Notes: generated by a model from the sequence alone, not told the origin. A stretch of 64,000 nucleotides of DNA from Candidatus Doudnabacteria bacterium (GCA_028286905.1 JAQBQP010000001.1:143114-207113); one strand, 5' to 3'; positions 6,214 to 53,829 are shown, numbered from the stretch's first letter. A program made the numbers and translations.

Positions 6214-7137
6214 ATGCAAATTACAGAAAAGGTTATTATCGTTTCAAATTTAAATAAGAAGTATAAAGATTTTGAGGCAGTTAAAGGAATTAGTTTCGAA
6301 GTTAACAAAGGTGAGGTTTTTGGAATTTTAGGCCCAAACGGCGCTGGAAAAACCACGACCCTAGAGATAATTGAGGGTTTGAAAAAACAAACCTCAGGAA
6401 CTATTCAGGTTTTGGGCTTAGACAATCTCAAATCCGACAAAGAAATTAAGAAAAGAATTGGAGTTCAGCTACAAAGCAGCGAATATCTTAATTATTTAAC
6501 ACTTGGTGAACAAATTAAGCTATTTGGCAGTTTATATGGGGTAAAAGCTGATCCGATTGCTACTCTAAAGAAGGTTAATCTAGAAGATAAGGTGAATAAC
6601 GAAGTAAAAGAGCTTTCTGGCGGACAGAAACAACGTTTTACCATTGCCACTGCGCTAGTGCATACCCCAGAAATCCTCTTTTTAGATGAACCAACCACCG
6701 GCTTAGACCCCCAAGCGCGCAGAGATATGTGGAATTTAATAAAGGAATTAAACCTTCAAGGTATAACCATAGTTATCACTACGCATTACATGGAAGAAGC
6801 CGAATATTTATGCAATCGGGTAGCAATAATGGATTCTGGAAAAATTTTGCAATTAGACAGCCCCCAAGGCTTAATTCAATCCCTCTCTAAGGTTTATAAA
6901 CTTAGTTTTTTTGTTAACAAGCCTTTGGATAAAGAATTTTTCAATTCTTTTGGAACACTGAAAGTCTATAATGAGTTTCCTAAAATTATTATTGAGCTCG
7001 AAAATATTGAACTGTTGCCACAAATCATTCAGAAACTTAAAGATCAAGGCATCGATTATAAGTTTTTGAACCTTAAAACTGCAACTCTTGAAGACGTTTA
7101 CTTACACTTAACCGGCCGCGAATACCAGGAACAATAA
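6214..7137 (+). CDS. ABC transporter ATP-binding protein (ABC-2 type exporter)
   Basis: Walker A GPNGAGKTT, signature LSGGQKQR, Walker B ILFLDEPTTGLD. Confidence 0.85.
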   Translation: MQITEKVIIVSNLNKKYKDFEAVKGISFEVNKGEVFGILGPNGAGKTTTLEIIEGLKKQTSGTIQVLGLDNLKSDKEIKKRIGVQLQSSEYLNYLTLGEQIKLFGSLYGVKADPIATLKKVNLEDKVNNEVKELSGGQKQRFTIATALVHTPEILFLDEPTTGLDPQARRDMWNLIKELNLQGITIVITTHYMEEAEYLCNRVAIMDSGKILQLDSPQGLIQSLSKVYKLSFFVNKPLDKEFFNSFGTLKVYNEFPKIIIELENIELLPQIIQKLKDQGIDYKFLNLKTATLEDVYLHLTGREYQEQ

Positions 7138-11197: not shown

Positions 11198-11383
11198 CTA
11201 CAGCTGACTTATCCGATCTTCGTCGAGTTCGGTTTCAGACTCGGCGCCTTCACCTTGCTCGATTCCGTGCGGTGGCTCCGAGACCTGTGGAGCGTTGCTG
11301 GATCGGTTATGCACCGTTCCAAGGTCGATAATGTTCGTTCCCGGCATGCTCTTCCAACGCTGGTCCTCCCCGATCCTGTCCAT
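11198..11383 (-). CDS. hypothetical small acidic protein (61 aa) in a GC-rich islet
   Basis: An ATG preceded by AGGAG at 6-nt spacing gives MDRIGEDQRW...ETELDEDRISQL. The longer 81-aa track ORF would start at a TTG with no SD. Coding status is uncertain. Confidence 0.25.
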   Translation of the reverse strand: MDRIGEDQRWKSMPGTNIIDLGTVHNRSSNAPQVSEPPHGIEQGEGAESETELDEDRISQL

Positions 11384-11457
11384 GACCCACTCCTGTTGAA
11401 TCCTGTTGTATTTTACGTCCGTTGCGTTATGCCAGTCAAACAAGTAATATTTAATAT

Positions 11458-13826: not shown

Positions 13827-13956
13827 ACATAACCACTATCGTCAGCTCCTTGACTTTTAGACGTATTTATGATACTATGGTGGATACCTAATTTTAAGGT
13901 ATTCCACGCGTCGCAAGGCGCTTAGCACGTTCACAATGTCTGGGAGGACTACACAG

Positions 13957-15132
13957 ATGTTTAAGATTCGACCCAACACTCGCGTTCGCGCGGCTATTGC
14001 CATCCTGGCATTAGCCCCAGTCTTGACAGCATGCAACAGCGAGGGTGTCACCGGTGTCAGCGCCAACCCGCCGACCTACCCCGGACCCGCCGGACCGACG
14101 ATCCCTAAGAAGACCTGCTCCGACGATCCGACCACAGGACAGCCCTGCATCAACGGCTATCCCTGGAGCAGCGTCGGCGCGATCGACCTGCCAAACGCGG
14201 TAACCGCGATGCTGGTCACCCCCGATGACAAGACCGCCTACGTCGGCGAGGGCAACCTCGTTCAACAGTATGCGGTTTTGACGGACAGCCTTCCGGCCGT
14301 TCGCCTCCAGGCTGTCGGCTCTCCGATCGGGATCGCCAGCAATGGGCGGCAATTCACGCTCTGCAACGGCCAGATCACCGCTCCGTACGGCACCAGCGGC
14401 ATCAGCATGATCGACCCTGCAACACAGACGTCGATCACTCTGCCGACGCTGACCAACAACAAGATCAGCAGCCTATCGTGCTCTCCAGGGAATTCAATCC
14501 TGGTGATAACCGATACGAACGGCGCAGTGCTCCGGTACAACTACGCAACAAAGACGACGCTTCCGATTATTCGCGACACAACGCGAATGGGAGTGCCTGC
14601 CTTCGCCGCGCAGAACCCATCCGGCACCGCTTTCATCGCTGCGAACTTCTCGGAGCGATACCAGAGCGGACAAATCGGGGTAAACTCGCCGATGCTGATC
14701 AGCCTCACGAACAGCAACACCAACGGAGTGTACTTCCCATCAAGCGGCGCGGCACTGCCAATCAACGGCGTGACGTACGGCAGCTGGGCCGCGACCATCT
14801 CCGAAGACAAAAACCTTCGTGTGTATGATGCGGTGCTTCCCAACGGCCAGTTTCCGGAACACTGCATGATGCCGCTTCCGGGGATACCTACCACCGTGAC
14901 AGCCGCCGACAACAGCAACCTCCTCGCAGTCGGCGTCCCGTTTAGCGCCACCGGCAATAAGGTGATCATCTATCGCGCCAACCCTGGCCGCCAGGCAGGC
15001 TGCGACAAGATCTTCGAGGCCGACAATTCCGTCGCGAACTCGCCGATCAAGGCGCTGCACTTCAGCGCTTCTGGTGCACACCTCTTTGTCGCCAGCGGCA
15101 ATCGAATCATCGTACTGGTCGCGAACAAGTAA
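13957..15132 (+). CDS. putative secreted lipoprotein (GC-rich islet), probable beta-propeller/repeat protein
   Basis: GGGAGGA SD 8 nt upstream of ATG 13957. MFKIRPNTRVRAAIAILALAPVLTAC is a signal peptide with an LTAC lipobox. About 62% GC against a roughly 38% background. The track ORF starts at 13936. Confidence 0.5.
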   Translation: MFKIRPNTRVRAAIAILALAPVLTACNSEGVTGVSANPPTYPGPAGPTIPKKTCSDDPTTGQPCINGYPWSSVGAIDLPNAVTAMLVTPDDKTAYVGEGNLVQQYAVLTDSLPAVRLQAVGSPIGIASNGRQFTLCNGQITAPYGTSGISMIDPATQTSITLPTLTNNKISSLSCSPGNSILVITDTNGAVLRYNYATKTTLPIIRDTTRMGVPAFAAQNPSGTAFIAANFSERYQSGQIGVNSPMLISLTNSNTNGVYFPSSGAALPINGVTYGSWAATISEDKNLRVYDAVLPNGQFPEHCMMPLPGIPTTVTAADNSNLLAVGVPFSATGNKVIIYRANPGRQAGCDKIFEADNSVANSPIKALHFSASGAHLFVASGNRIIVLVANK

Positions 15133-36720: not shown

Positions 36721-36772
36721 TACTTCAATTGTAAGACATGCAAGTTCATGGAGGACTAACTGGGAGGTTGGA

Positions 36773-36952
36773 ATGTACGAACAGTCCAGGTCGACCAGTT
36801 TGCCGGAGATCGTTTATTTCACCGATCAAGAGGTTCCGGGCCCCCAGATAATGGTGGTGGCAACAGCGTTCGTGTTCGTATATCGCCATCCAAGCCCGCT
36901 CGAGGTCGAGGATATCGTTCCTGAGGTTTGGGAGCGTCAGCCGATCCAGTAG
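36773..36952 (+). CDS. hypothetical 59-aa protein in a GC-rich islet
   Basis: GGGAGG SD 5 nt before ATG gives MYEQSRSTSLPEIVYFTDQEVPGPQIMVVATAFVFVYRHPSPLEVEDIVPEVWERQPIQ. Stop followed directly by hairpin ccccgcgttttcttttggaaacgcgggg. Below the track cutoff. A competing 94-aa minus-strand ORF overlaps ruvC. Confidence 0.25.
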   Translation: MYEQSRSTSLPEIVYFTDQEVPGPQIMVVATAFVFVYRHPSPLEVEDIVPEVWERQPIQ

Positions 36953-36995
36953 CAACACCCCGCGTTTTCTTTTGGAAACGCGGGGTGGATCATTT

Positions 36996-37472
36996 CTATT
37001 TTGTATTTTTAAAACTTGCACACAGCGCAATTCCTAAAGCATCAGCAGCATCATCGGGTTTCGGTAAAGTTTTTAAATTAAAAGTTTTTTGAACCATCAA
37101 TTGAACTTGTCTTTTTTCAGCTTTGCCATAGCCGCAAATCATCGACTTAACCTGCAATGGCGTAAATTCAAACAGTTCTATCTTACTTTGTTCTAATGTG
37201 AGCAATACGACTCCCCTCGCCTGCGAAACAGTCATTGCGGTGGTGACATTAGTTTTGAAGAAAAGCTTTTCAACTCCTGCGCGGTTAGGCTTATATTTTG
37301 TAATGATCTTTTTTAAATCTTTTTGCAATTCCGCTAACCGTGCGGAGTCGCTAAGAGTTTTCTTTGTTTGAATCACTCCGAAATCCAAAATCCGAAAAGA
37401 ATTATCTTTTTGTTTTTTTATTAAAGCATAACCAGTAGTTGCTGTTCCCGGGTCTATCCCAAGTATAATCAT
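36996..37472 (-). CDS. ruvC: crossover junction endodeoxyribonuclease RuvC
   Basis: MIILGIDPGTATTGYALI RNase-H-like fold start, 158 aa. Confidence 0.85.
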   Translation of the reverse strand: MIILGIDPGTATTGYALIKKQKDNSFRILDFGVIQTKKTLSDSARLAELQKDLKKIITKYKPNRAGVEKLFFKTNVTTAMTVSQARGVVLLTLEQSKIELFEFTPLQVKSMICGYGKAEKRQVQLMVQKTFNLKTLPKPDDAADALGIALCASFKNTK

Positions 37473-40607: not shown

Positions 40608-40683
40608 TGGTGGGCACGCCAGGACTCGAACCTGGGACCAGTTGTGTATAAGACAACCGCTCTACCAACTGAGCTACGTGCCC
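40608..40683 (-). tRNA. tRNA with anticodon UAU (Ile, AUA decoder), CCA encoded
   Basis: Hand-folded cloverleaf GGGCACG/CGUGCCC acceptor, D arm GCUC...GAGC, anticodon arm GUUGU-CUUAUAC-ACAAC, T arm CCAGG-UUCGAGU-CCUGG. Confidence 0.7.
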
Positions 40684-44848: not shown

Positions 44849-45424
44849 TTATTCAGAGTCCGTTCGGGTTAAAGGTTCGAGATCAATACCACAGAGCGTA
44901 CAATAGCCTTCGTACTGAAGAAAAATTGCGCGCGGGTGACCAGCTCGGCACTCGATCATTCGATGGTGTGCCAGGCTCCTGCCGTTCAGCGCCAAGAAGA
45001 CTTTGTGTGCGAAATGCGCGTTCTTTTCACCGCAGCATTCGCAGAATCGGCAATCGGCTTGGACCTGCTCACCGCACGAAGGCTCTTCGCACAAGGTGGT
45101 TTGTCCATACTGCCCGAGAGCGTAGAGGTGTCCCCTCAATGTATCGTGATTAGGCGCGTTCGCGGTGTCGCCAGCCGCTTGCTCAAGCTCTTGGATTTTT
45201 TTCTCAACGAAGGCATTTGATTTTTTCAGCCGGCTAGCAATAACCGCTGATTCAATCCCTTCAGAATGCATTCGAAGAATAAGAAAATCTTCGGCTGGAA
45301 TTGTTCGCGCCAGTTCCCAGCACTTTCGACTGAGTTCCTGGAAGAGCATCTCAATCTCATCATCGAGAAGAGAGTCCTGGTCGTCCTCATTGTTCTCCTC
45401 GGGTTCGGGGTCTATCCAAGTCAT
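44849..45424 (-). CDS. sigma-70 region-4-like HTH + zinc-ribbon protein, paralogue 1 (GC-rich islet)
   Basis: Start MTWIDPEPEE overlaps the upstream stop as ATGA. Sigma4-like FLILRMHSEGIESAVIASRL. C-terminal CxxCG...CxxCG, GHP, GYCxLCG. The stop is embedded in a terminator hairpin. Confidence 0.5.
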   Translation of the reverse strand: MTWIDPEPEENNEDDQDSLLDDEIEMLFQELSRKCWELARTIPAEDFLILRMHSEGIESAVIASRLKKSNAFVEKKIQELEQAAGDTANAPNHDTLRGHLYALGQYGQTTLCEEPSCGEQVQADCRFCECCGEKNAHFAHKVFLALNGRSLAHHRMIECRAGHPRAIFLQYEGYCTLCGIDLEPLTRTDSE

Positions 45425-46077
45425 AATTCCTCGTCGTTTTCGAATTGCCCAAGGATCGGCGCGAGATCTGTGCCGCACAGATTGCAATACCCGACGCACC
45501 GATACTTAATCGCTATTGGGTGGCCAACATGGCATTCACCAGCGCACTCTTCTTCATATGAGTTGCCTCGTACTTGAAGAAAGATCCGAGCGTCGAACTC
45601 GCTATTTGGCTTACCGCACTGGACGCAGTACTTAAGGTCTTCGTGCTGGAAAAAGCCGCAATTTGAACAGCGAGTTTGATAGCCGTATTCAGCTAAGGCA
45701 TGCATTGCTTCATCAAGGTTTGGCACCCAACGCAGCAGGTGTACAGTGGCAATGCGTTCTGCCGAGGCGCGAACCCCGGCAATTTCCTCAGGCGTAATAC
45801 TCAGCCTGTTTGCAATTTGATCTTCCGACAGAAATGTCAGTAGCCGAAGGATCAAAAACGCGTCTTCTCTAAGCAAGGCTGCCGCTGCAGCCGCTCGCTC
45901 CCGTACAATCTGCTCGTTCTTTTCTGCGCGCTTGAATTTCTCGAATGTTTGGGGTTGTCCAGGTTCTGCCCCTGTCGACTCGTCTGACTTGAAGATTTTG
46001 AACGAATCTGAGTGTATTCCCTCGGGGTTCCAGGCGTTGTCGTCTGAATTTTCCCAAGGATCTCTTTCCTTTTTCAT
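45421..46077 (-). CDS. sigma-70 region-4-like HTH + zinc-ribbon protein, paralogue 2 (GC-rich islet)
   Basis: GGAGG SD 4 nt before MKKERDPW. Acidic N-terminus. Sigma4-like LREDAFLILRLLTFLSEDQIANRLSITPEEIAGVRASAERI. C-terminal CSNCG...CVQCG, ECAGECHVGHP, GYCNLCG. Confidence 0.5.
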   Translation of the reverse strand: MKKERDPWENSDDNAWNPEGIHSDSFKIFKSDESTGAEPGQPQTFEKFKRAEKNEQIVRERAAAAAALLREDAFLILRLLTFLSEDQIANRLSITPEEIAGVRASAERIATVHLLRWVPNLDEAMHALAEYGYQTRCSNCGFFQHEDLKYCVQCGKPNSEFDARIFLQVRGNSYEEECAGECHVGHPIAIKYRCVGYCNLCGTDLAPILGQFENDEEL

Positions 46078-46125
46078 ACATCCTCCGGGAAGTTGGTTGA
46101 ATCTAGTATACATCCATTAAAACCT

Positions 46126-47951: not shown

Positions 47952-48980
47952 TTACAGGATTTCGAGTTTTCGAGTGTTCATGTCCACTACCGCCGTGAGA
48001 ACTTCGAGATGTTTGAGCAGATCAGGCGTGTGAGCTTCGATTACGTCCCGTGCGTATGCGCTTAGGAACTTCGTCTTTTCAATTGCCAATTGGCGATCTG
48101 GACCTACCGGCTTGCGGTAAGCTGCGGAGGTCATCAAGACCAAACCATCTGCGCCGTTAACCCTGCCGGAGACGATGTTGTCCTGAAGCAGAATTGCCGC
48201 AGTCTTGATTGGTCCAGTTATGTCCGGTGAGTATGGGCCGACAAGAAAAGCGGCGTTGATCTCGTGTAGCCAATCGAACCCACTGCCGATACCAATCATC
48301 CACTCCTTGTGTTCTACTTCGGAGTTCGGGCGGTTCGATGCACGTATTTCCTTGATGTGCTTGAGGTTTCCTGCCAACAGCGGCAAAAAATCCGTTTGCA
48401 CTTGTTCAGGCATCGATGGGTACAGGCGCTTGATCAGGTCCTTTAATTCTGCGGATGACGCCGTTTCGTTCAGTTCGGACAGGTCGACACGTTCGCCATT
48501 TTCTCCGTGGAGGATTAGTGCATCCAGGTCGGTTTCGATTCCGCAGACAATTGAGGTTACAGCCTGACCTTTGAAGACAGTACTAATCTGTTGCTTCAGG
48601 GTGGCCATCTCCAAAAGTGCGGCGTCGGTGTTATAGTCGAAGCCTCTGCAACCGCGGTGTGCGTCTCCTCTGGAGAAATGGTAGGTTACCAAGACTAAAC
48701 ACGGTCTTGCTCGGCTGATTGCGTAGGATACCCATTCGTTGAGAGTGGTTTGGAAGTGAGCCCAGCCCAAGTTAAACCGACCACCGAGATTTCGGAACGG
48801 TCGGATTATGCCCAACGGAGTTTGTGTGATTATCGGCAAGTGAAGCCTGCCGTCCATGCATTTCAGCACGGCGATTTCCGTTGGATGCTGGCTGCGGTAC
48901 AAACTGCGATCCAGTGCTTGGTTGAGGAAGCTGGTTGAGCTACTTGCATTCAAATCAACGAGGTGTTTTATCCTATTCAA
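47952..48980 (-). CDS. hypothetical protein with beta-carbonic-anhydrase-like zinc-site motifs plus a roughly 140-aa C-terminal extension (GC-rich islet)
   Basis: TTG start with GGAGA SD at 6 nt. CMDGR (CxDxR), FRNLGG about 20 aa later (compare beta-CA VRNAGN), and HRGC (HxxC) about 67 aa after the first Cys. Confidence 0.4.
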   Translation of the reverse strand: MNRIKHLVDLNASSSTSFLNQALDRSLYRSQHPTEIAVLKCMDGRLHLPIITQTPLGIIRPFRNLGGRFNLGWAHFQTTLNEWVSYAISRARPCLVLVTYHFSRGDAHRGCRGFDYNTDAALLEMATLKQQISTVFKGQAVTSIVCGIETDLDALILHGENGERVDLSELNETASSAELKDLIKRLYPSMPEQVQTDFLPLLAGNLKHIKEIRASNRPNSEVEHKEWMIGIGSGFDWLHEINAAFLVGPYSPDITGPIKTAAILLQDNIVSGRVNGADGLVLMTSAAYRKPVGPDRQLAIEKTKFLSAYARDVIEAHTPDLLKHLEVLTAVVDMNTRKLEIL

Positions 48981-49403: not shown

Positions 49404-50012
49404 TTAACTTTCTTGTGGGAACTGTTGTTCGATTTTATTCAAATCTGTGTAAACGCTTTTAGTTGCTCTTATCCAGGAAGTACTTCTAGGATAAACGTAA
49501 ATTCCGTTCATCTTATCTAGTGTCCATCCATCATAACGCTTGCTTAAGAGTCCTTGTAAGTCGACAATCCAGTCAGCCTTGGTTTCGTATTTCTTCAAAC
49601 CAGCATAACCTTGGTCGTATCTTGCGTATATACCGCTACAGTTGTTGTAGTAACAGTGCTGTCCCATAGTGCTTTCCGCATTAGAGATCGCAATAATTGT
49701 TTTCCAGTCTTTTTGCGCTAATATTATGCCTGCGTAATCTGCTAACGGAGAATTTCTTTTTTCCAGGTATTCTGTTAGTAATGCCACCTGCTTATCAGCA
49801 TTTTCTTTTTTTATTTGGGAAATTTTATTTTCGGGACTCAGTAATGAATCCGGGTTTTCAGTTTTGATTTCAAAAACTTGGCTGTTTTCCTGACCAACGA
49901 TCTGGGCGTGAGCCTTAGCTACTGGAGTGATCCAAGGAACTAGAGATAACAGAGTTAATATAACTACTGTTTTATCTTTGGCAGATCGTAGGGCATTCAA
50001 AGAAGCGGTCAT
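49404..50012 (-). CDS. secreted/exported hypothetical protein
   Basis: N-terminal signal-like hydrophobic segment ...VVILTLLSLVPWITPVAKAHA. No diagnostic motif. Confidence 0.35.
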   Translation of the reverse strand: MTASLNALRSAKDKTVVILTLLSLVPWITPVAKAHAQIVGQENSQVFEIKTENPDSLLSPENKISQIKKENADKQVALLTEYLEKRNSPLADYAGIILAQKDWKTIIAISNAESTMGQHCYYNNCSGIYARYDQGYAGLKKYETKADWIVDLQGLLSKRYDGWTLDKMNGIYVYPRSTSWIRATKSVYTDLNKIEQQFPQES

Positions 50013-50221
50013 TTTATATGATCAATTCCTTTCTTCCCTAATATTTAGATTAAAGTGTGCAAAAGCCTACAATCAGGCTTTTAAAACCTTTTGCCGAGTT
50101 CTATCTCAGCAGAACCATACTTTATCATACTTAAGACCATTTGTCAAGGAGTTTGTCAAGATGACATTTAGGCCAAAAAATGGTCTAAAAAAGCAAAAAC
50201 CTCAATGAATCAGGTAAAAAT

Positions 50222-50256
50222 TGAAAGAAGCGCTCTACCGTAGGGGGTACGGGAGC
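50222..50256 (-). terminator. GC-rich hairpin terminator (gaagcgctc...gagcgcttc plus U-tract on minus strand)
   Basis: Seen in sequence. Confidence 0.5.
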
Positions 50257-50277
50257 GCTTCTGGGCGGTCGATGCGT

Positions 50278-50868
50278 TCATGCAATTTGCGGTAAGCCAG
50301 CAATGTGAAGGCGACGGAGCTGGGCAATATGTCTCACGATCTTGCCCATTAAGGTGTGGTGGATCCATTCCGGGGTATCCTTCGCGTTTACCAGCAAATA
50401 CCGGCCTTTTGGGTAGCGGGTTTTGCTAGCTACCAGGGCTTGCTCCTCTTTGGCGTAGTGGGCCATCACTTCACGGCCTCCTTTGCCATCGATCAGAAAG
50501 ACCACGGCCATTCCTTGCTCGTTAAGGAATTGAGCGTCCTTTAGGAGCTGGCCACAGCTACTGTCACAGAGGTCCACTATTGCAATAGATTCTGCACCCA
50601 AGCTCCCCTCGGCTACCAGCTCGGCTATGCCGGGGTGAACAGGCAGTGAAGGTTCCTTGCAAACCCTTTGCACAAAGATCGTGGTGAATCTCCCTATGTG
50701 CGGGTCGGTGGGAAGCTTAGCGATATCATCGCTTAGCCTCTTAAGGACTTTCATGTGGGCTCGCGAGGATGGCGATTCGGAGATGATTAGGATGACGCGT
50801 TCGCGGGCGCGCCTTTCTGGGTTCTCTCCACTGCGGGGTGTGATCCGCCGGTCGGAAAGCATCGACAT
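50278..50868 (-). CDS. hypothetical alpha/beta protein (GC-rich islet)
   Basis: GGAGGAG SD 6-7 nt before MSMLSDRR. Alternating hydrophobic strands (RVILIISES, IAIVDLCDSSCG, MAVVFLIDGKGG) suggest a Rossmann/flavodoxin-like fold. Family not recognised. Confidence 0.35.
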   Translation of the reverse strand: MSMLSDRRITPRSGENPERRARERVILIISESPSSRAHMKVLKRLSDDIAKLPTDPHIGRFTTIFVQRVCKEPSLPVHPGIAELVAEGSLGAESIAIVDLCDSSCGQLLKDAQFLNEQGMAVVFLIDGKGGREVMAHYAKEEQALVASKTRYPKGRYLLVNAKDTPEWIHHTLMGKIVRHIAQLRRLHIAGLPQIA

Positions 50869-51041
50869 TTGTAACTCCTCCTGAGAGTTCCATGTATACA
50901 TCGCACGGCAACCCCTAGGTTGCTACTTGCTGCGTGCTGCTTACTACTTACATTAAATACCTTAACAAAAGAAAAGACCTTACGGAAGATCGTCAAGGCC
51001 TTTTTTCGTGGACATGTTATGGATAACCTGTTGGTTAGCTG

Positions 51042-51449
51042 TTAATTTTTCGAAATTTCTTGTTTATATTTAGCGTAATCCTCAATATAGTCTTCTCTGT
51101 TGGGATTGTAGTTGGTTGAAGAAACTGCGAGTAAAACTAAGTCGTCAGATAAATTCTTGAACCCGTGCCAAATGTAATTGCCAATATATATTGCGTCTGT
51201 GGGTGCATTTAATAAAATTTCTTCCAAACCTTGTCCCCTATCAATAATCGCGGTACAAGACCCACTTTGAACGATGAACAATTCTTTTTCTTTCAAATGG
51301 CAATGTTGGCCGGTGTCCCCGGTAGGCTTTGTAATAAAATAAATTCTTTTTACTTCAAAATCAATATATTCGTTTAGCTCGACAGGACTCATCACAAAAT
51401 GAGGCGCCTGTATTTTTTTAATTTGAAATTGCTTAAACTCTAAGTGCAT
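51042..51449 (-). CDS. cupin-fold sugar 3,4-ketoisomerase-like protein (FdtA/WxcM-like)
   Basis: Cupin His motifs GQHCHLKEKELFIV. Directly downstream of rfbB. The track ORF extends to 51509; a start at M21 avoids overlap with rfbB. Confidence 0.45.
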   Translation of the reverse strand: MHLEFKQFQIKKIQAPHFVMSPVELNEYIDFEVKRIYFITKPTGDTGQHCHLKEKELFIVQSGSCTAIIDRGQGLEEILLNAPTDAIYIGNYIWHGFKNLSDDLVLLAVSSTNYNPNREDYIEDYAKYKQEISKN

Positions 51450-51454
51450 GATCT

Positions 51455-52675
51455 TTATTTTATATGTCCGTTGATTGCAGAGTTTCTTTTCTGCACATTT
51501 TCGGACCATTCTTTATTATTTAAATACCATTCAATCGTTTTTGGTAAAGCTTCTTCAAAACGATGTTCAGGATACCAACCAAGGTCATTCATAATCTTTG
51601 TGGCATCAATAGCATATCTACGATCATGGCCTGGTCGATCAGGAACAAATTTGATTGTTGATTCTGGAAGATTAAAGTATTGCAAGATAAGCTTCGCAAT
51701 TTCAAGATTGTTCTTTTCGTTGTTGCCGCCGATATTATAAACTTCACCGGGAATCCCTTTGTGCAGCATTAAATCAATAGCTTTTACGTGATCTAGAACG
51801 AACAACCAATCGCGGATATTCCTGCCATCGCCATAGATTGGGAATGGCTCATTGTTTAAAGCTTTGCCGATTAAGAACGGAATAAGTTTTTCTGGGAACT
51901 GGTAAGGGCCATAATTATTTGAACAATGACTAACTATTACGGGTACTCCAAAGGTTTGGTAATATGCTCGACATAGTAAATCCCCACCGGACTTTGCTGC
52001 GGCATAAGGAACGTTTGGTTCAAAAGCAGTGTTCTCTAAAAACATTCTATGTTCGTTCAATTTTAGAGAACCATAAACTTCATCGGTTGAAATATTTATA
52101 AATTTAAAAAGATTGTGTCGTCTGGTTGCATCTAATAGAGTTTGCACTCCGACAACGTTGGTCATAACGAATTCTCTGGAGCCAACATGAATGCTTCGGT
52201 CAACATGTGTTTCAGCTGCAAAGTTTACGATCGCATCTATTTTTTCAGTAGTAATAACATGTTCAATCATTTGCTGATCGACAATGTCGCCATGGTAGAA
52301 TTTATAGTTGGAAAGATGTTCAATGTCGATCAAATTTTCAAGATTGCCAGCGTAAGTAAGCTTGTCCAAGTTCACTATTTTATAATGCGGGTACTTTGTG
52401 ACCATATGTCGGACAAAATTGCTGCCAATAAAACCCGCGCCACCACAAACCAAAACATTTAGTTGGCGTACGGGCAAACTCATTCCGCGGAGGATCGATG
52501 AAAATATTTCTGCGGATAGTCCAGAAATTTTGATTGCATCGTGAATTTCGATATCACCTTCCTTGTATAAACGGATTGCTAAGCGTGTTCTTTCAGAAGT
52601 GGTCATCTGACTAAGAATTTCTTCGCTATAGGCTTCTGTTCCGGTTTGAGTGTTGTTTGGCTGCCAGTCGGTCAT
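51455..52675 (-). CDS. rfbB: dTDP-glucose 4,6-dehydratase (start uncertain; the core may begin at about 52483)
   Basis: GGAGFIGSNFV Rossmann motif, YAAAKSGGDLL (YxxxK), NNYGPYQFPEKLIP. The roughly 64-aa N-terminal extension in the longest ORF has no SD. Confidence 0.8.
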   Translation of the reverse strand: MTDWQPNNTQTGTEAYSEEILSQMTTSERTRLAIRLYKEGDIEIHDAIKISGLSAEIFSSILRGMSLPVRQLNVLVCGGAGFIGSNFVRHMVTKYPHYKIVNLDKLTYAGNLENLIDIEHLSNYKFYHGDIVDQQMIEHVITTEKIDAIVNFAAETHVDRSIHVGSREFVMTNVVGVQTLLDATRRHNLFKFINISTDEVYGSLKLNEHRMFLENTAFEPNVPYAAAKSGGDLLCRAYYQTFGVPVIVSHCSNNYGPYQFPEKLIPFLIGKALNNEPFPIYGDGRNIRDWLFVLDHVKAIDLMLHKGIPGEVYNIGGNNEKNNLEIAKLILQYFNLPESTIKFVPDRPGHDRRYAIDATKIMNDLGWYPEHRFEEALPKTIEWYLNNKEWSENVQKRNSAINGHIK

Positions 52676-52821
52676 AGGAAAAGTCTTACTTGTTTATGTA
52701 ATAAAGTATCATCAAACGACCTGGTTGGTCAAGATAACGACACCGCTATCAGATACGAAAAGCCCAGAACCGGAGTTCTGGGCAGATCGTTATATTTGTT
52801 GCTGTACTGACGGCACAGGGT

Positions 52822-53543
52822 TCAGGCGTGTGCCAGGATGACCTGCACCTTCTTGATCGCGGCGATGGACAGCGGGCAGACGATCTCGTCGGCCCCGATC
52901 ATCTCGTCGATCTCCTCCTGGGTGAAGAAGTCGACCTTGTAGATCTTCTCCTTCTCGTCAGGGTTCTGCTTGCCGAGCCGGTCTTCGTCGACCCGTGCCA
53001 GGAAGATCGGGGTGTAGCCGCAGATGAAAGTGGTGTTGCCTGCAACGATCTGCCCGATCTTCTCGCAGCTGAGCAGCGGGCCCCCGATCTCCTCACCGCC
53101 TTCACGCATGGCGGTCTCCTTCGTGGTTTCGCCTGCTTCGGCATGCCGCGGGGAACTTCCCAGAGTCCGGTGCCGAACTTGGAGAAGTCGGTTGGTGGGT
53201 AGGAGTAGTCATCCGGGTTCGCCACTGCGGGACGGTCAACCTTGACTAGACCGATACGCTCCTTCGAGTCGACGACCATGGTAATGGCGCCGATGTTCTC
53301 GAAATGCAGAGGCTGGTCCCACAGCGGGGTGCCATCGTCCTTGCAGATGGCGACGTGCACGAGCTGCCCGATCCCCTTCGTGTGCTCGAAGACGATGTCA
53401 GTGTTGGGGTTGGAGTCTTCGGTGCTGTACAAGTACCAGCCACGAAGGGGGCGCTTCTCGCCGTTTCTCTTGGCCTGTTCGTACAAGACGGGAGTGCCGT
53501 AAAAGAACTGGCTTGCTACCTGTGAGAATGGGACGACCTTCAT
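52822..53543 (-). pseudogene. Nudix hydrolase, frame-disrupted within the Nudix box (GC-rich islet)
   Basis: Frame A (from 53543) ends ...FGTGLWEVPRG, then runs into an Arg/Ser-rich stretch that does not look like real coding sequence. The frame shifted by one nucleotide continues ...HAEAGETTKETAMREGGEEIGGPLL..., a perfect Gx5Ex7REUxEExGU Nudix signature. A single-nucleotide frame change near 53140-53155 joins the two frames. Confidence 0.5.
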
Positions 53544-53742
53544 GTGTCAAACCTCGGGTGGAAGTGAAACTGCAAACGCGGGAACAAATATAACTTCAAT
53601 TTAGCCTCCTTTAGACTAAACAATAAATGATAGTACTATTTTTGAGGTTTAAAGTCAAGAAGGTTGATGCTTAATGACGGGGCTGGAAATTTTCTACGAG
53701 GTGTACTATAATACACGAGCATTCTGAAATTGTTCCTGTCCC

Positions 53743-53829
53743 GCCCGGGTGGCGAAACTGGCAGACGCACTACCTTGAGGTGGTAGCGGGAGCAATCCCA
53801 TAGGAGTTCGACTCTCCTCTCGGGCACCA
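53743..53829 (+). tRNA. tRNA-Leu (anticodon GAG), long variable arm
   Basis: Hand-folded. Anticodon arm CUACC-UUGAGGU-GGUAG. CCA encoded. Confidence 0.8.

Follow-up and report, generated by a model that had tools for sequence, protein, structure and literature searches.

A one-base frame break within the Nudix box of a Candidatus Doudnabacteria gene, probably marking a very recent pseudogene

Introduction

Does a gene whose two halves lie in different reading frames, but together spell one enzyme, record a mutation, an error in the assembly or a way of making protein across frames? The question is raised by the minus strand of positions 52822-53543 in a 64-kb stretch of DNA from Candidatus Doudnabacteria bacterium, which was analysed as a whole and is called the window below. 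A first-pass annotation of the window had described a Nudix hydrolase gene split by a one-base frame change inside the Nudix box, and had left three explanations side by side: a pseudogene, a sequencing indel or programmed frameshifting. NCBI annotates the upstream frame as MDB4939753.1, 'hypothetical protein JWO40_178', on a 248,627-bp contig of Candidatus Doudnabacteria bacterium. Doudnabacteria genomes have been reported in a study of soil CPR bacteria (PMC8407418); no link is drawn here between that study and the present contig.

Results

The frame break

Re-translation of the minus strand yielded no single continuous reading frame for the Nudix domain, and the split therefore stands as a -1 change within positions 53133-53145. 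The ORF at 53543..52899 comprises 214 aa and is credible as a protein as far as ...KFGTGLWEVPRG. This frame encodes residues 1 to ~133-136 of the Nudix gene (…GLWEVPRG(MPK)); the N-terminal region had been put at 130 aa, and its coding character held while its length was revised to 133-136 aa. Past ...GLWEVPRG, the original frame runs on through 81 Arg/Ser/Pro-rich codons. The remainder of the Nudix protein is encoded one base back (…GETTKETAMREGGEEIGG…), in a frame that reads (H)AEAGETTKETAMREGGEEIGG... and ...HAEAGETTKETAMREGGEEIGGPLL... and stays open up to the TGA stop codon. The C at 53145 is used twice, in the Gly codon GGC of one frame and in the His codon CAT of the other, which makes the relation between the frames -1: the DNA is short of one base. 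The sign is given from the ribosome's view; at the DNA level, one base is missing.

Base composition at the three codon positions followed the change of frame. Upstream of the break, GC1/2/3 was 0.58/0.40/0.79 in the original frame. Downstream, it was 0.61/0.36/0.87 in the shifted frame and 0.37/0.84/0.59 in the original one. Codon-position GC thus confirms that the coding frame moves at the break, and the break is a real feature of the sequence, far beyond chance. The Arg/Ser-rich continuation of the upstream frame had been thought not to be coding; with a GC2 of 0.84 and no homology to relatives, it is not real coding sequence.

One protein in two frames

Joining the two frames gave a protein of 240 aa, the length that had been expected of the restored enzyme (about 240 aa). 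The joined protein matched Pfam NUDIX (PF00293) with 36.7 bits (gathering score 21.1, E 5e-9) and the C-terminal piece alone with 23.3 bits (7e-5); the annotated 214-aa ORF had no Pfam match. Against a family profile built from 127 relatives, the window's own sequence left out, the joined protein scored 232-236 bits, compared with 117 for the N-terminal (annotated) ORF and 88 for the C-terminal one. Both searches bear out the proposal that the shifted frame continues as a plausible C-terminus to 52822, and joined-protein homology agrees with re-translation on the frame change inside the Nudix box.

A word-indexed search returned the ORF itself and one uninterrupted relative (P0002), which is 41% identical and aligns across the junction without a gap. 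An exhaustive HMMER search enlarged the family to 811 representatives at E<=1e-3, of which 210 reach E<=1e-10 and 27 reach E<=1e-30. Almost all of the 210 are ~205-245 aa long and match as a single stretch; the annotated ORF (P0001) matches the profile only over 1-139. The N-terminal part aligns from residue 1 with P0002, P0003 and P0004. When the 15 closest relatives were aligned with the joined protein, E-x-P-R-G, R-E and E-E were invariant or nearly so, and no frame break was present in any of the 15.

The closest relative (P0003, 50.6% identity) is an intact gene on the contig JBKJSV010000010.1 of GCA_046595755.1, referred to below as L004. This contig has the window's arrangement of tRNA-Leu, Nudix, RfbB, FdtA, a 185-aa gene and a 203-aa gene. 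Amino-acid identity between the window and L004 was 85.5% for RfbB, 82% for FdtA, 63.5% for the 202/203-aa gene and 50.6% for the Nudix protein. A second syntenic orthologue (P0004, on L005/L009) is also intact, with its Nudix cassette inverted between RfbB and tRNA-Leu. A distant relative on L003, a Patescibacteria genome-assembled contig found by scanning GTDB genomes, is intact as well. The orthologue check that the first-pass annotation had called for thus found every orthologue whole and none carrying the split, which appears to be private to this Candidatus Doudnabacteria genome.

The two parts of the gene are equally similar to the orthologue on L004 (N-terminal part 51.9%, C-terminal part 51.0% identical). 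The downstream part keeps all family-invariant residues, and its frame is open to the normal stop of the family. Comparison with L004 and the other relatives revealed no secondary decay after the lesion in the form of further stops, indels or relaxed conservation. The dN/dS ratio was considered as a test of relaxed selection and dropped because synonymous sites are saturated relative to the closest orthologue.

Position of the missing base

The lesion was located by codon alignment with L001, L003 and L004 and by scoring junction variants against the family profile. At the junction, relatives have PRG-[F/M]-[P/A]-[K/E]-x-G-E; in the window, the original frame still gives PRG-M-P-K and only then goes astray. 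As PRG-M-P-K still matches the relatives, the missing base may lie anywhere from 53145 down to 53133 (GGC ATG CCG AAG CA|GGC GAA), and any one-base insertion there gives a continuous 240-aa frame. Five junction variants scored 232-236 bits; being at most 4 bits apart, they allow only the interval to be given. The profile favours Met over His after PRG by ~4 bits, and the base was probably lost after the ATG codon (53133-53142); 'HAEA' may partly be an out-of-frame reading. A single base had indeed been proposed, at 53140-53155, and the alignment with relatives moves the site slightly. The GC-rich homopolymer context (ccccgcgg) suggested for it is probably not the site: the candidate ancestral contexts at the lesion are only 2-3-base runs (GGG to GG, GG to G, CCC to CC). 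The features of the locus are listed in Table 1.

Table 1. Coordinates of the Nudix gene parts, their neighbours and the GC-rich genes.
Feature	Coordinates	Strand	Description
N-terminal coding part	53146..53543	-	ATG 53543-53541 to Gly133 codon (GGC, 53147-53145); encodes N-terminal beta domain and first strands of Nudix fold
Missing-base interval	53133..53145	-	Codon alignment and profile scores
C-terminal coding part, -1 frame	52822..53132	-	Starts one codon past Gly138 codon (GGC, 53133-53131), which overlaps the missing-base interval; E139-TTKETAM-RE-GG-EE-IGG (Nudix box helix), then rest of Nudix fold and C-terminal helices; stop TGA 52824-52822
Out-of-frame tail of annotated 214-aa ORF	52899..53132	-	Arg/Ser/Pro-rich; not real coding sequence
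Sigma-70-like promoter TTGACT-17-TACTAT	53630..53658	-	Nudix gene's own; homologous in L004 and L005
AT-rich leader, ~85 nt, containing AGGAGG	53544-53629	-	Homologous in L004 and L005
Intrinsic terminator-like hairpin and T-run	52762..52783	-	Immediately 3' of Nudix stop codon
dTDP-glucose 4,6-dehydratase (RfbB)	51455..52675	-	TIGR01181 455 bits, cut-off 365; downstream neighbour
FdtA/WbuC-type cupin (dTDP-keto-sugar isomerase family)	51042..51449	-	Pfam FdtA (Logan gene call); NCBIfam WbuC weak
tRNA-Leu(GAG)	53743..53829	+	First of four tRNA genes flanking the Nudix cassette
GC-rich genes, window	52822-53543, 13936-15132, 44849-46113, 47952-48980, 50278-50901, 11198-11443, 36746-37030
GC-rich genes, L004	420-1151, 3170-3727
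GC-rich genes, L009	4108-4452, 10001-10723

Predicted fold and Nudix box

From a 70-sequence alignment, AlphaFold modelled the restored protein (pLDDT 90.3, pTM 0.85) as a beta domain at the N-terminus with a Nudix fold after it. The junction is in the loop immediately before catalytic helix residues 141-153; on this model, neither fragment alone would be able to form the active site. Foldseek gave 323 PDB matches at a threshold of E<=1e-3, and the 50 listed at the top were Nudix enzymes without exception. The best of them (9b1z, 1g9q, 1ga7, 1mqw, 5c7q, 1viu and 1viq, over 180-207 aligned columns, as well as Bacillus methanolicus Nudix hydrolases) had a sequence identity of 17-21%. The restored protein is thus predicted to have the Nudix alpha/beta/alpha fold of the ADP-ribose/NDP-sugar pyrophosphatase-like kind. 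A search of PDB sequences gave only matches at E>=0.01 that were confined to the box, and no NCBIfam equivalog threshold was reached (NudE 17.6 bits versus 169, Nud_hyd_Dein 28.2 versus 200).

Once the frame is corrected, the box reads G133-x5-E139-x7-R147 E148-G-G-E151 E152-I-G154-G. The G, E, RE, EE and G of the signature are all there and hardly vary among relatives, and both 'U' positions, the bulky-aliphatic ones, are Gly rather than I/L/V. The signature had been called perfect, which it is not; it is a variant of GX5EX7REUXEEXGU that keeps the catalytic Glu residues. ADPRases, in the account of Dunn et al. from 1999, are said to have a diagnostic Pro ~15 residues after the Nudix box. On inspection of the sequence, the marker position (~15-16 residues past the box) is held in this family by a nearly invariant N170-T-T-F.

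Mutation or consensus error

We consider it probable that a very recent one-base deletion made the Nudix gene a pseudogene. A gene of ~240 aa would have lost one base within the interval given above, between the ...EVPRG strand and the catalytic helix RE..EE. A ribosome beginning at the normal start would then make residues 1 to ~136 fused to 78-81 junk residues, and as this product would lack every metal-binding Glu of the Nudix box, the enzyme would be inactive. That the deletion would be very recent follows from the downstream part, which is open to the normal stop, retains the invariant residues and resembles the orthologue no less than the upstream part does.

The chief competitor is an indel of sequencing, assembly or consensus, in which case the organism's gene is intact and a base was dropped in the consensus, or a minority deletion allele was picked. 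The undecayed downstream part, with every invariant residue kept, fits an error as well as a very young mutation. Short G or C runs of the kind named above are the possible ancestral contexts in the interval, and exact-protein look-ups found the sequence carried by only one sample. Against an error stands a contig of the k-mer-based Logan assembly of run SRR13312974, which is 100% identical to window positions 49899-53777 (3879 bp, no gaps, the site included). Both assemblies probably come from the same sequencing run and so represent independent assemblers rather than independent data. There is, moreover, no homopolymer of >=5 near the site, the nearest being ~50-60 nt or more away.

The rest of the window speaks against an error too. 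The other ORFs listed for it are long (among them ones of 1148, 919, 859, 820, 659 and 653 aa) and close together. Going by length and packing, not by homology, no further gene in the 64 kb looks split. From this, the indel error rate of the assembly appears to be very low. No long ORF was listed for the first 2.4 kb of the window, which, from the adjacent RpoB-like ORF, we infer to be a gene running off the window edge. With an identical sequence from a second assembler and an intact remainder of the window, a pseudogene is favoured over a sequencing indel, which we regard as unlikely but still deserving some weight, and we infer that the dominant population carries the deletion in its DNA. 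A second sample of the strain was sought among JGI metagenome contigs with an exact gapped DNA pattern across the site (0 matches), and a protein-seeded scan of the same contigs found no relatives.

Recoding and a two-piece enzyme

Programmed -1 ribosomal frameshifting or transcriptional slippage, giving a full-length and perhaps regulated enzyme, would account for two open frames, a fully conserved downstream part and a shift in the direction common among programmed frameshifts. The signals for it are missing, however: a scan of the whole ORF turned up neither an X XXY YYZ heptamer nor an A/T run suited to slippage, and inspection of the sequence indicates that tRNAs at GGC/ATG/CCG/AAG/CAG could not shift their pairing to the -1 frame. 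A 106-nt segment covering the site and the sequence past it has a minimum free energy (MFE) of -38.8 kcal/mol, no lower than that of shuffled sequences (mean -39.1, z = 0.08), and Rfam found only tRNAs over the whole window. Nor does the shift occur in any orthologue or in the 15 closest relatives, the two syntenic orthologues included, and the frame-0 tail continues for 81 codons instead of stopping soon after the site. Recoding is therefore very improbable, and of the three explanations offered at first, programmed frameshifting can effectively be set aside.

Least probable of all is a split gene making two cooperating polypeptides, the N-terminal one from the normal start and the C-terminal one from ATG 53109 (M146) with AAGGAG at 6-nt spacing, for although the ORF 53109..52822 (95 aa) exists with a good Shine-Dalgarno-like sequence (AAGGAG-ACCGCC-ATG), a start at M146 falls inside the catalytic helix and omits G133 to E139 of the Nudix box, both pieces interleave in one beta-sheet of the predicted model, AAGGAG and ATG simply encode K-E...M within family variation, no relative among those inspected is split, and the protein collection has no entry for exactly this 95-aa product.

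Gene neighbourhood

The Nudix gene has its own promoter-like site, leader and terminator (Table 1), which makes it a unit of one gene; losing it need not have a polar effect on RfbB. RfbB lies downstream of the Nudix gene in L004 as well and adjoins it in L005/L009; tRNA-Leu(GAG) flanks the gene in L004 and L009 too. Nucleotide-sugar or glycan genes were neighbours in five of the seven contexts of the Nudix family examined: RfbB-FdtA in the window, L004 and L005, long-form RmlA in L001, and three GT2 genes with RmlA and an epimerase in L006/L007. Together with the predicted fold, this neighbourhood suggests that the restored enzyme may be an NDP-sugar (possibly dTDP-sugar) pyrophosphatase.

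Several features of the cassette and its neighbour were recorded alongside. RfbB has an N-terminal extension of ~72 aa (52460-52675, minus strand) outside the TIGR01181 match (residues 74-394), which is conserved in the L004 orthologue. The motif AGGAGG...AAGTTATA, ~60 nt upstream of the Nudix start, is conserved in all three orthologous loci (leader at 53540-53629 of the window, minus strand; ~330-419 of L004; ~4900-5000 of L005). In the window, a TTG-started 19-codon ORF (53599..53540, MKLYLFPRLQFHFHPRFDT) begins 5 nt after AGGAGG, and its TGA overlaps the Nudix ATG (ATGA); by eye, it is not conserved in L004. The whole cassette (promoter, leader, coding sequence and terminator) has opposite orientations in L009 (8542-10909) and the window (51455-53829). 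As it is flipped between the same neighbours, RfbB and tRNA-Leu-GAG, an in-place inversion is indicated.

GC-rich coding sequences

The Nudix coding sequence has 60% GC (GC3 0.79-0.87) in a window of 40% GC whose typical genes have a GC3 of ~0.33. Its orthologues are equally GC-rich (60% in L004, 59% in L005/L009), with flanks of 40-43%. Four-fold sites compared between the window and L004 are near saturation (identical fraction 0.39 against 0.27 expected for RfbB, and 0.29 against 0.29 expected for Nudix), and their G+C is 71-74% in Nudix versus 34-39% in RfbB. Other single genes of 50-60% GC (GC3 0.5-0.87) are found among typical genes of 34-43% GC, and the GC-richness stops at ORF boundaries. 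The GC-rich genes diverge much faster than the backbone (identity of 51% for Nudix and 27% for g207/g185, versus 85.5% for RfbB), and some slots are filled by different GC-rich genes in different genomes, for example in L009. For most GC-rich genes, no Pfam or PHROG family was found. A phage origin of the Nudix gene and the other GC-rich genes was considered and rejected: PHROGs gave only generic Nudix box matches, and tblastn against phages gave nothing.

Two explanations can be put forward for the GC-richness: the genes may have been transferred repeatedly from high-GC donors, or GC-rich codons may be maintained in a gene-specific way. The Nudix family is also present in an organism of 65% GC (L006). 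A gene-specific force, such as codon or mRNA selection or a targeted biased process, that keeps synonymous sites GC-rich against AT-biased drift in a 38-40% GC genome is a tentative proposal to which we give a low probability. On this proposal, simple un-ameliorated horizontal transfer would not explain the anomaly of the Nudix gene, which occurs in vertically related orthologues that have a homologous AT-rich promoter and leader and essentially saturated four-fold sites.

The GC-rich gene at 47952-48980 (minus strand) encodes a 342-aa protein with a weak match to Pfam CsoSCA_cat (25.1 bits, cut-off 21.5), the catalytic domain of carboxysome-shell carbonic anhydrase, and its NCBIfam score is far below the cut-off. 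A CPR genome is not where such a domain would be expected, and L009 lacks the CsoSCA-like gene in the corresponding stretch. The minus strand also has two overlapping GC-rich ORFs side by side, of 216 aa (44849-45499) and 230 aa (45421-46113); they look paralogous, each with a Cys-rich, zinc-ribbon-like C-terminal half, and neither has a family match. Their slot in L009 holds a PIG-L gene and a different GC-rich gene of 114 aa.

Other observations

Most bacteria decode AUA with a lysidine-modified CAU tRNA. In the window, ARAGORN predicted a tRNA-Ile with the anticodon TAT (UAU) at 40608-40683 on the minus strand (Rfam tRNA, 75 bits). L009 has a free-standing LAGLIDADG homing-endonuclease-like gene (6472-7125), with the RNHCP gene on one side of it and the g202-like gene on the other. 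The window lacks this gene and carries two tRNA genes and the CsoSCA-like gene at that place.

Discussion

The overall interpretation of the first-pass annotation, one Nudix gene broken by one base, is supported by this analysis, and the break is best read as a very recent deletion that probably turned the gene into a pseudogene. MDB4939753.1 (214 aa) is chimeric, with a genuine N-terminal half joined to an out-of-frame tail; its record ought to carry the label of a frameshifted Nudix pseudogene, or be put right should reads reveal an error. On the favoured reading, the organism would have just lost the Nudix gene or be polymorphic for it, and the case adds a little to the record of gene loss in reduced CPR genomes; the result has no bearing on recoding mechanisms. 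The analysis also defines an uncharacterised ADPRase-like Nudix clade, with 210 or more representative clusters at E<=1e-10, which is found repeatedly in the company of dTDP-sugar and glycosyltransferase genes and whose predicted fold is closest to ADP-ribose/nucleoside-diphosphate-sugar pyrophosphatases. The coding-limited GC-richness conserved across orthologues is the only item here that might repay further work.

Among characterised enzymes, the restored protein resembles NudF/ADPRase (E. coli 1G9Q/1GA7, M. tuberculosis 1MQW, Klebsiella 9B1Z) in having an N-terminal beta domain and a Nudix domain (E ~2e-9 to 4e-8; TM 0.50-0.60 by query and 0.60-0.71 by target), with R, E and EE of the Nudix box in place. 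Unlike ADPRases, to which it is only 17-21% identical, it has Gly or small residues at the U positions and N-T-T-F for Pro; its clade has an extra N-terminal insert of ~25 aa, and the window copy is frameshifted. NDP-sugar hydrolases (Bdellovibrio 5C7Q; E. coli NudK/YffH-type 1VIU) are a second point of comparison: 5c7q_B superimposes at 2.8 A (184 columns), closer in rmsd than any other top match, and the dTDP-sugar and glycosyltransferase genes around the family fit an NDP-sugar substrate. Identity to 5C7Q/1VIU is 14-17%, and the link to dTDP-sugars is by gene neighbourhood only.

With respect to the break itself, the window gene is like dnaX and the IS3-family transposases in having two overlapping frames that are related by -1 and each encode part of one protein. 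Unlike these, it has no slippery heptamer, stimulatory structure or conserved shift. It is closer to the frameshift pseudogenes annotated as 'hypothetical protein' in metagenome-assembled genomes, which show the same single-base indel, intact frames on both sides, intact orthologues and a half-real product. Compared with such pseudogenes, the sole oddity of the window gene is its GC-rich coding sequence in an AT-rich genome of the Candidate Phyla Radiation (CPR).
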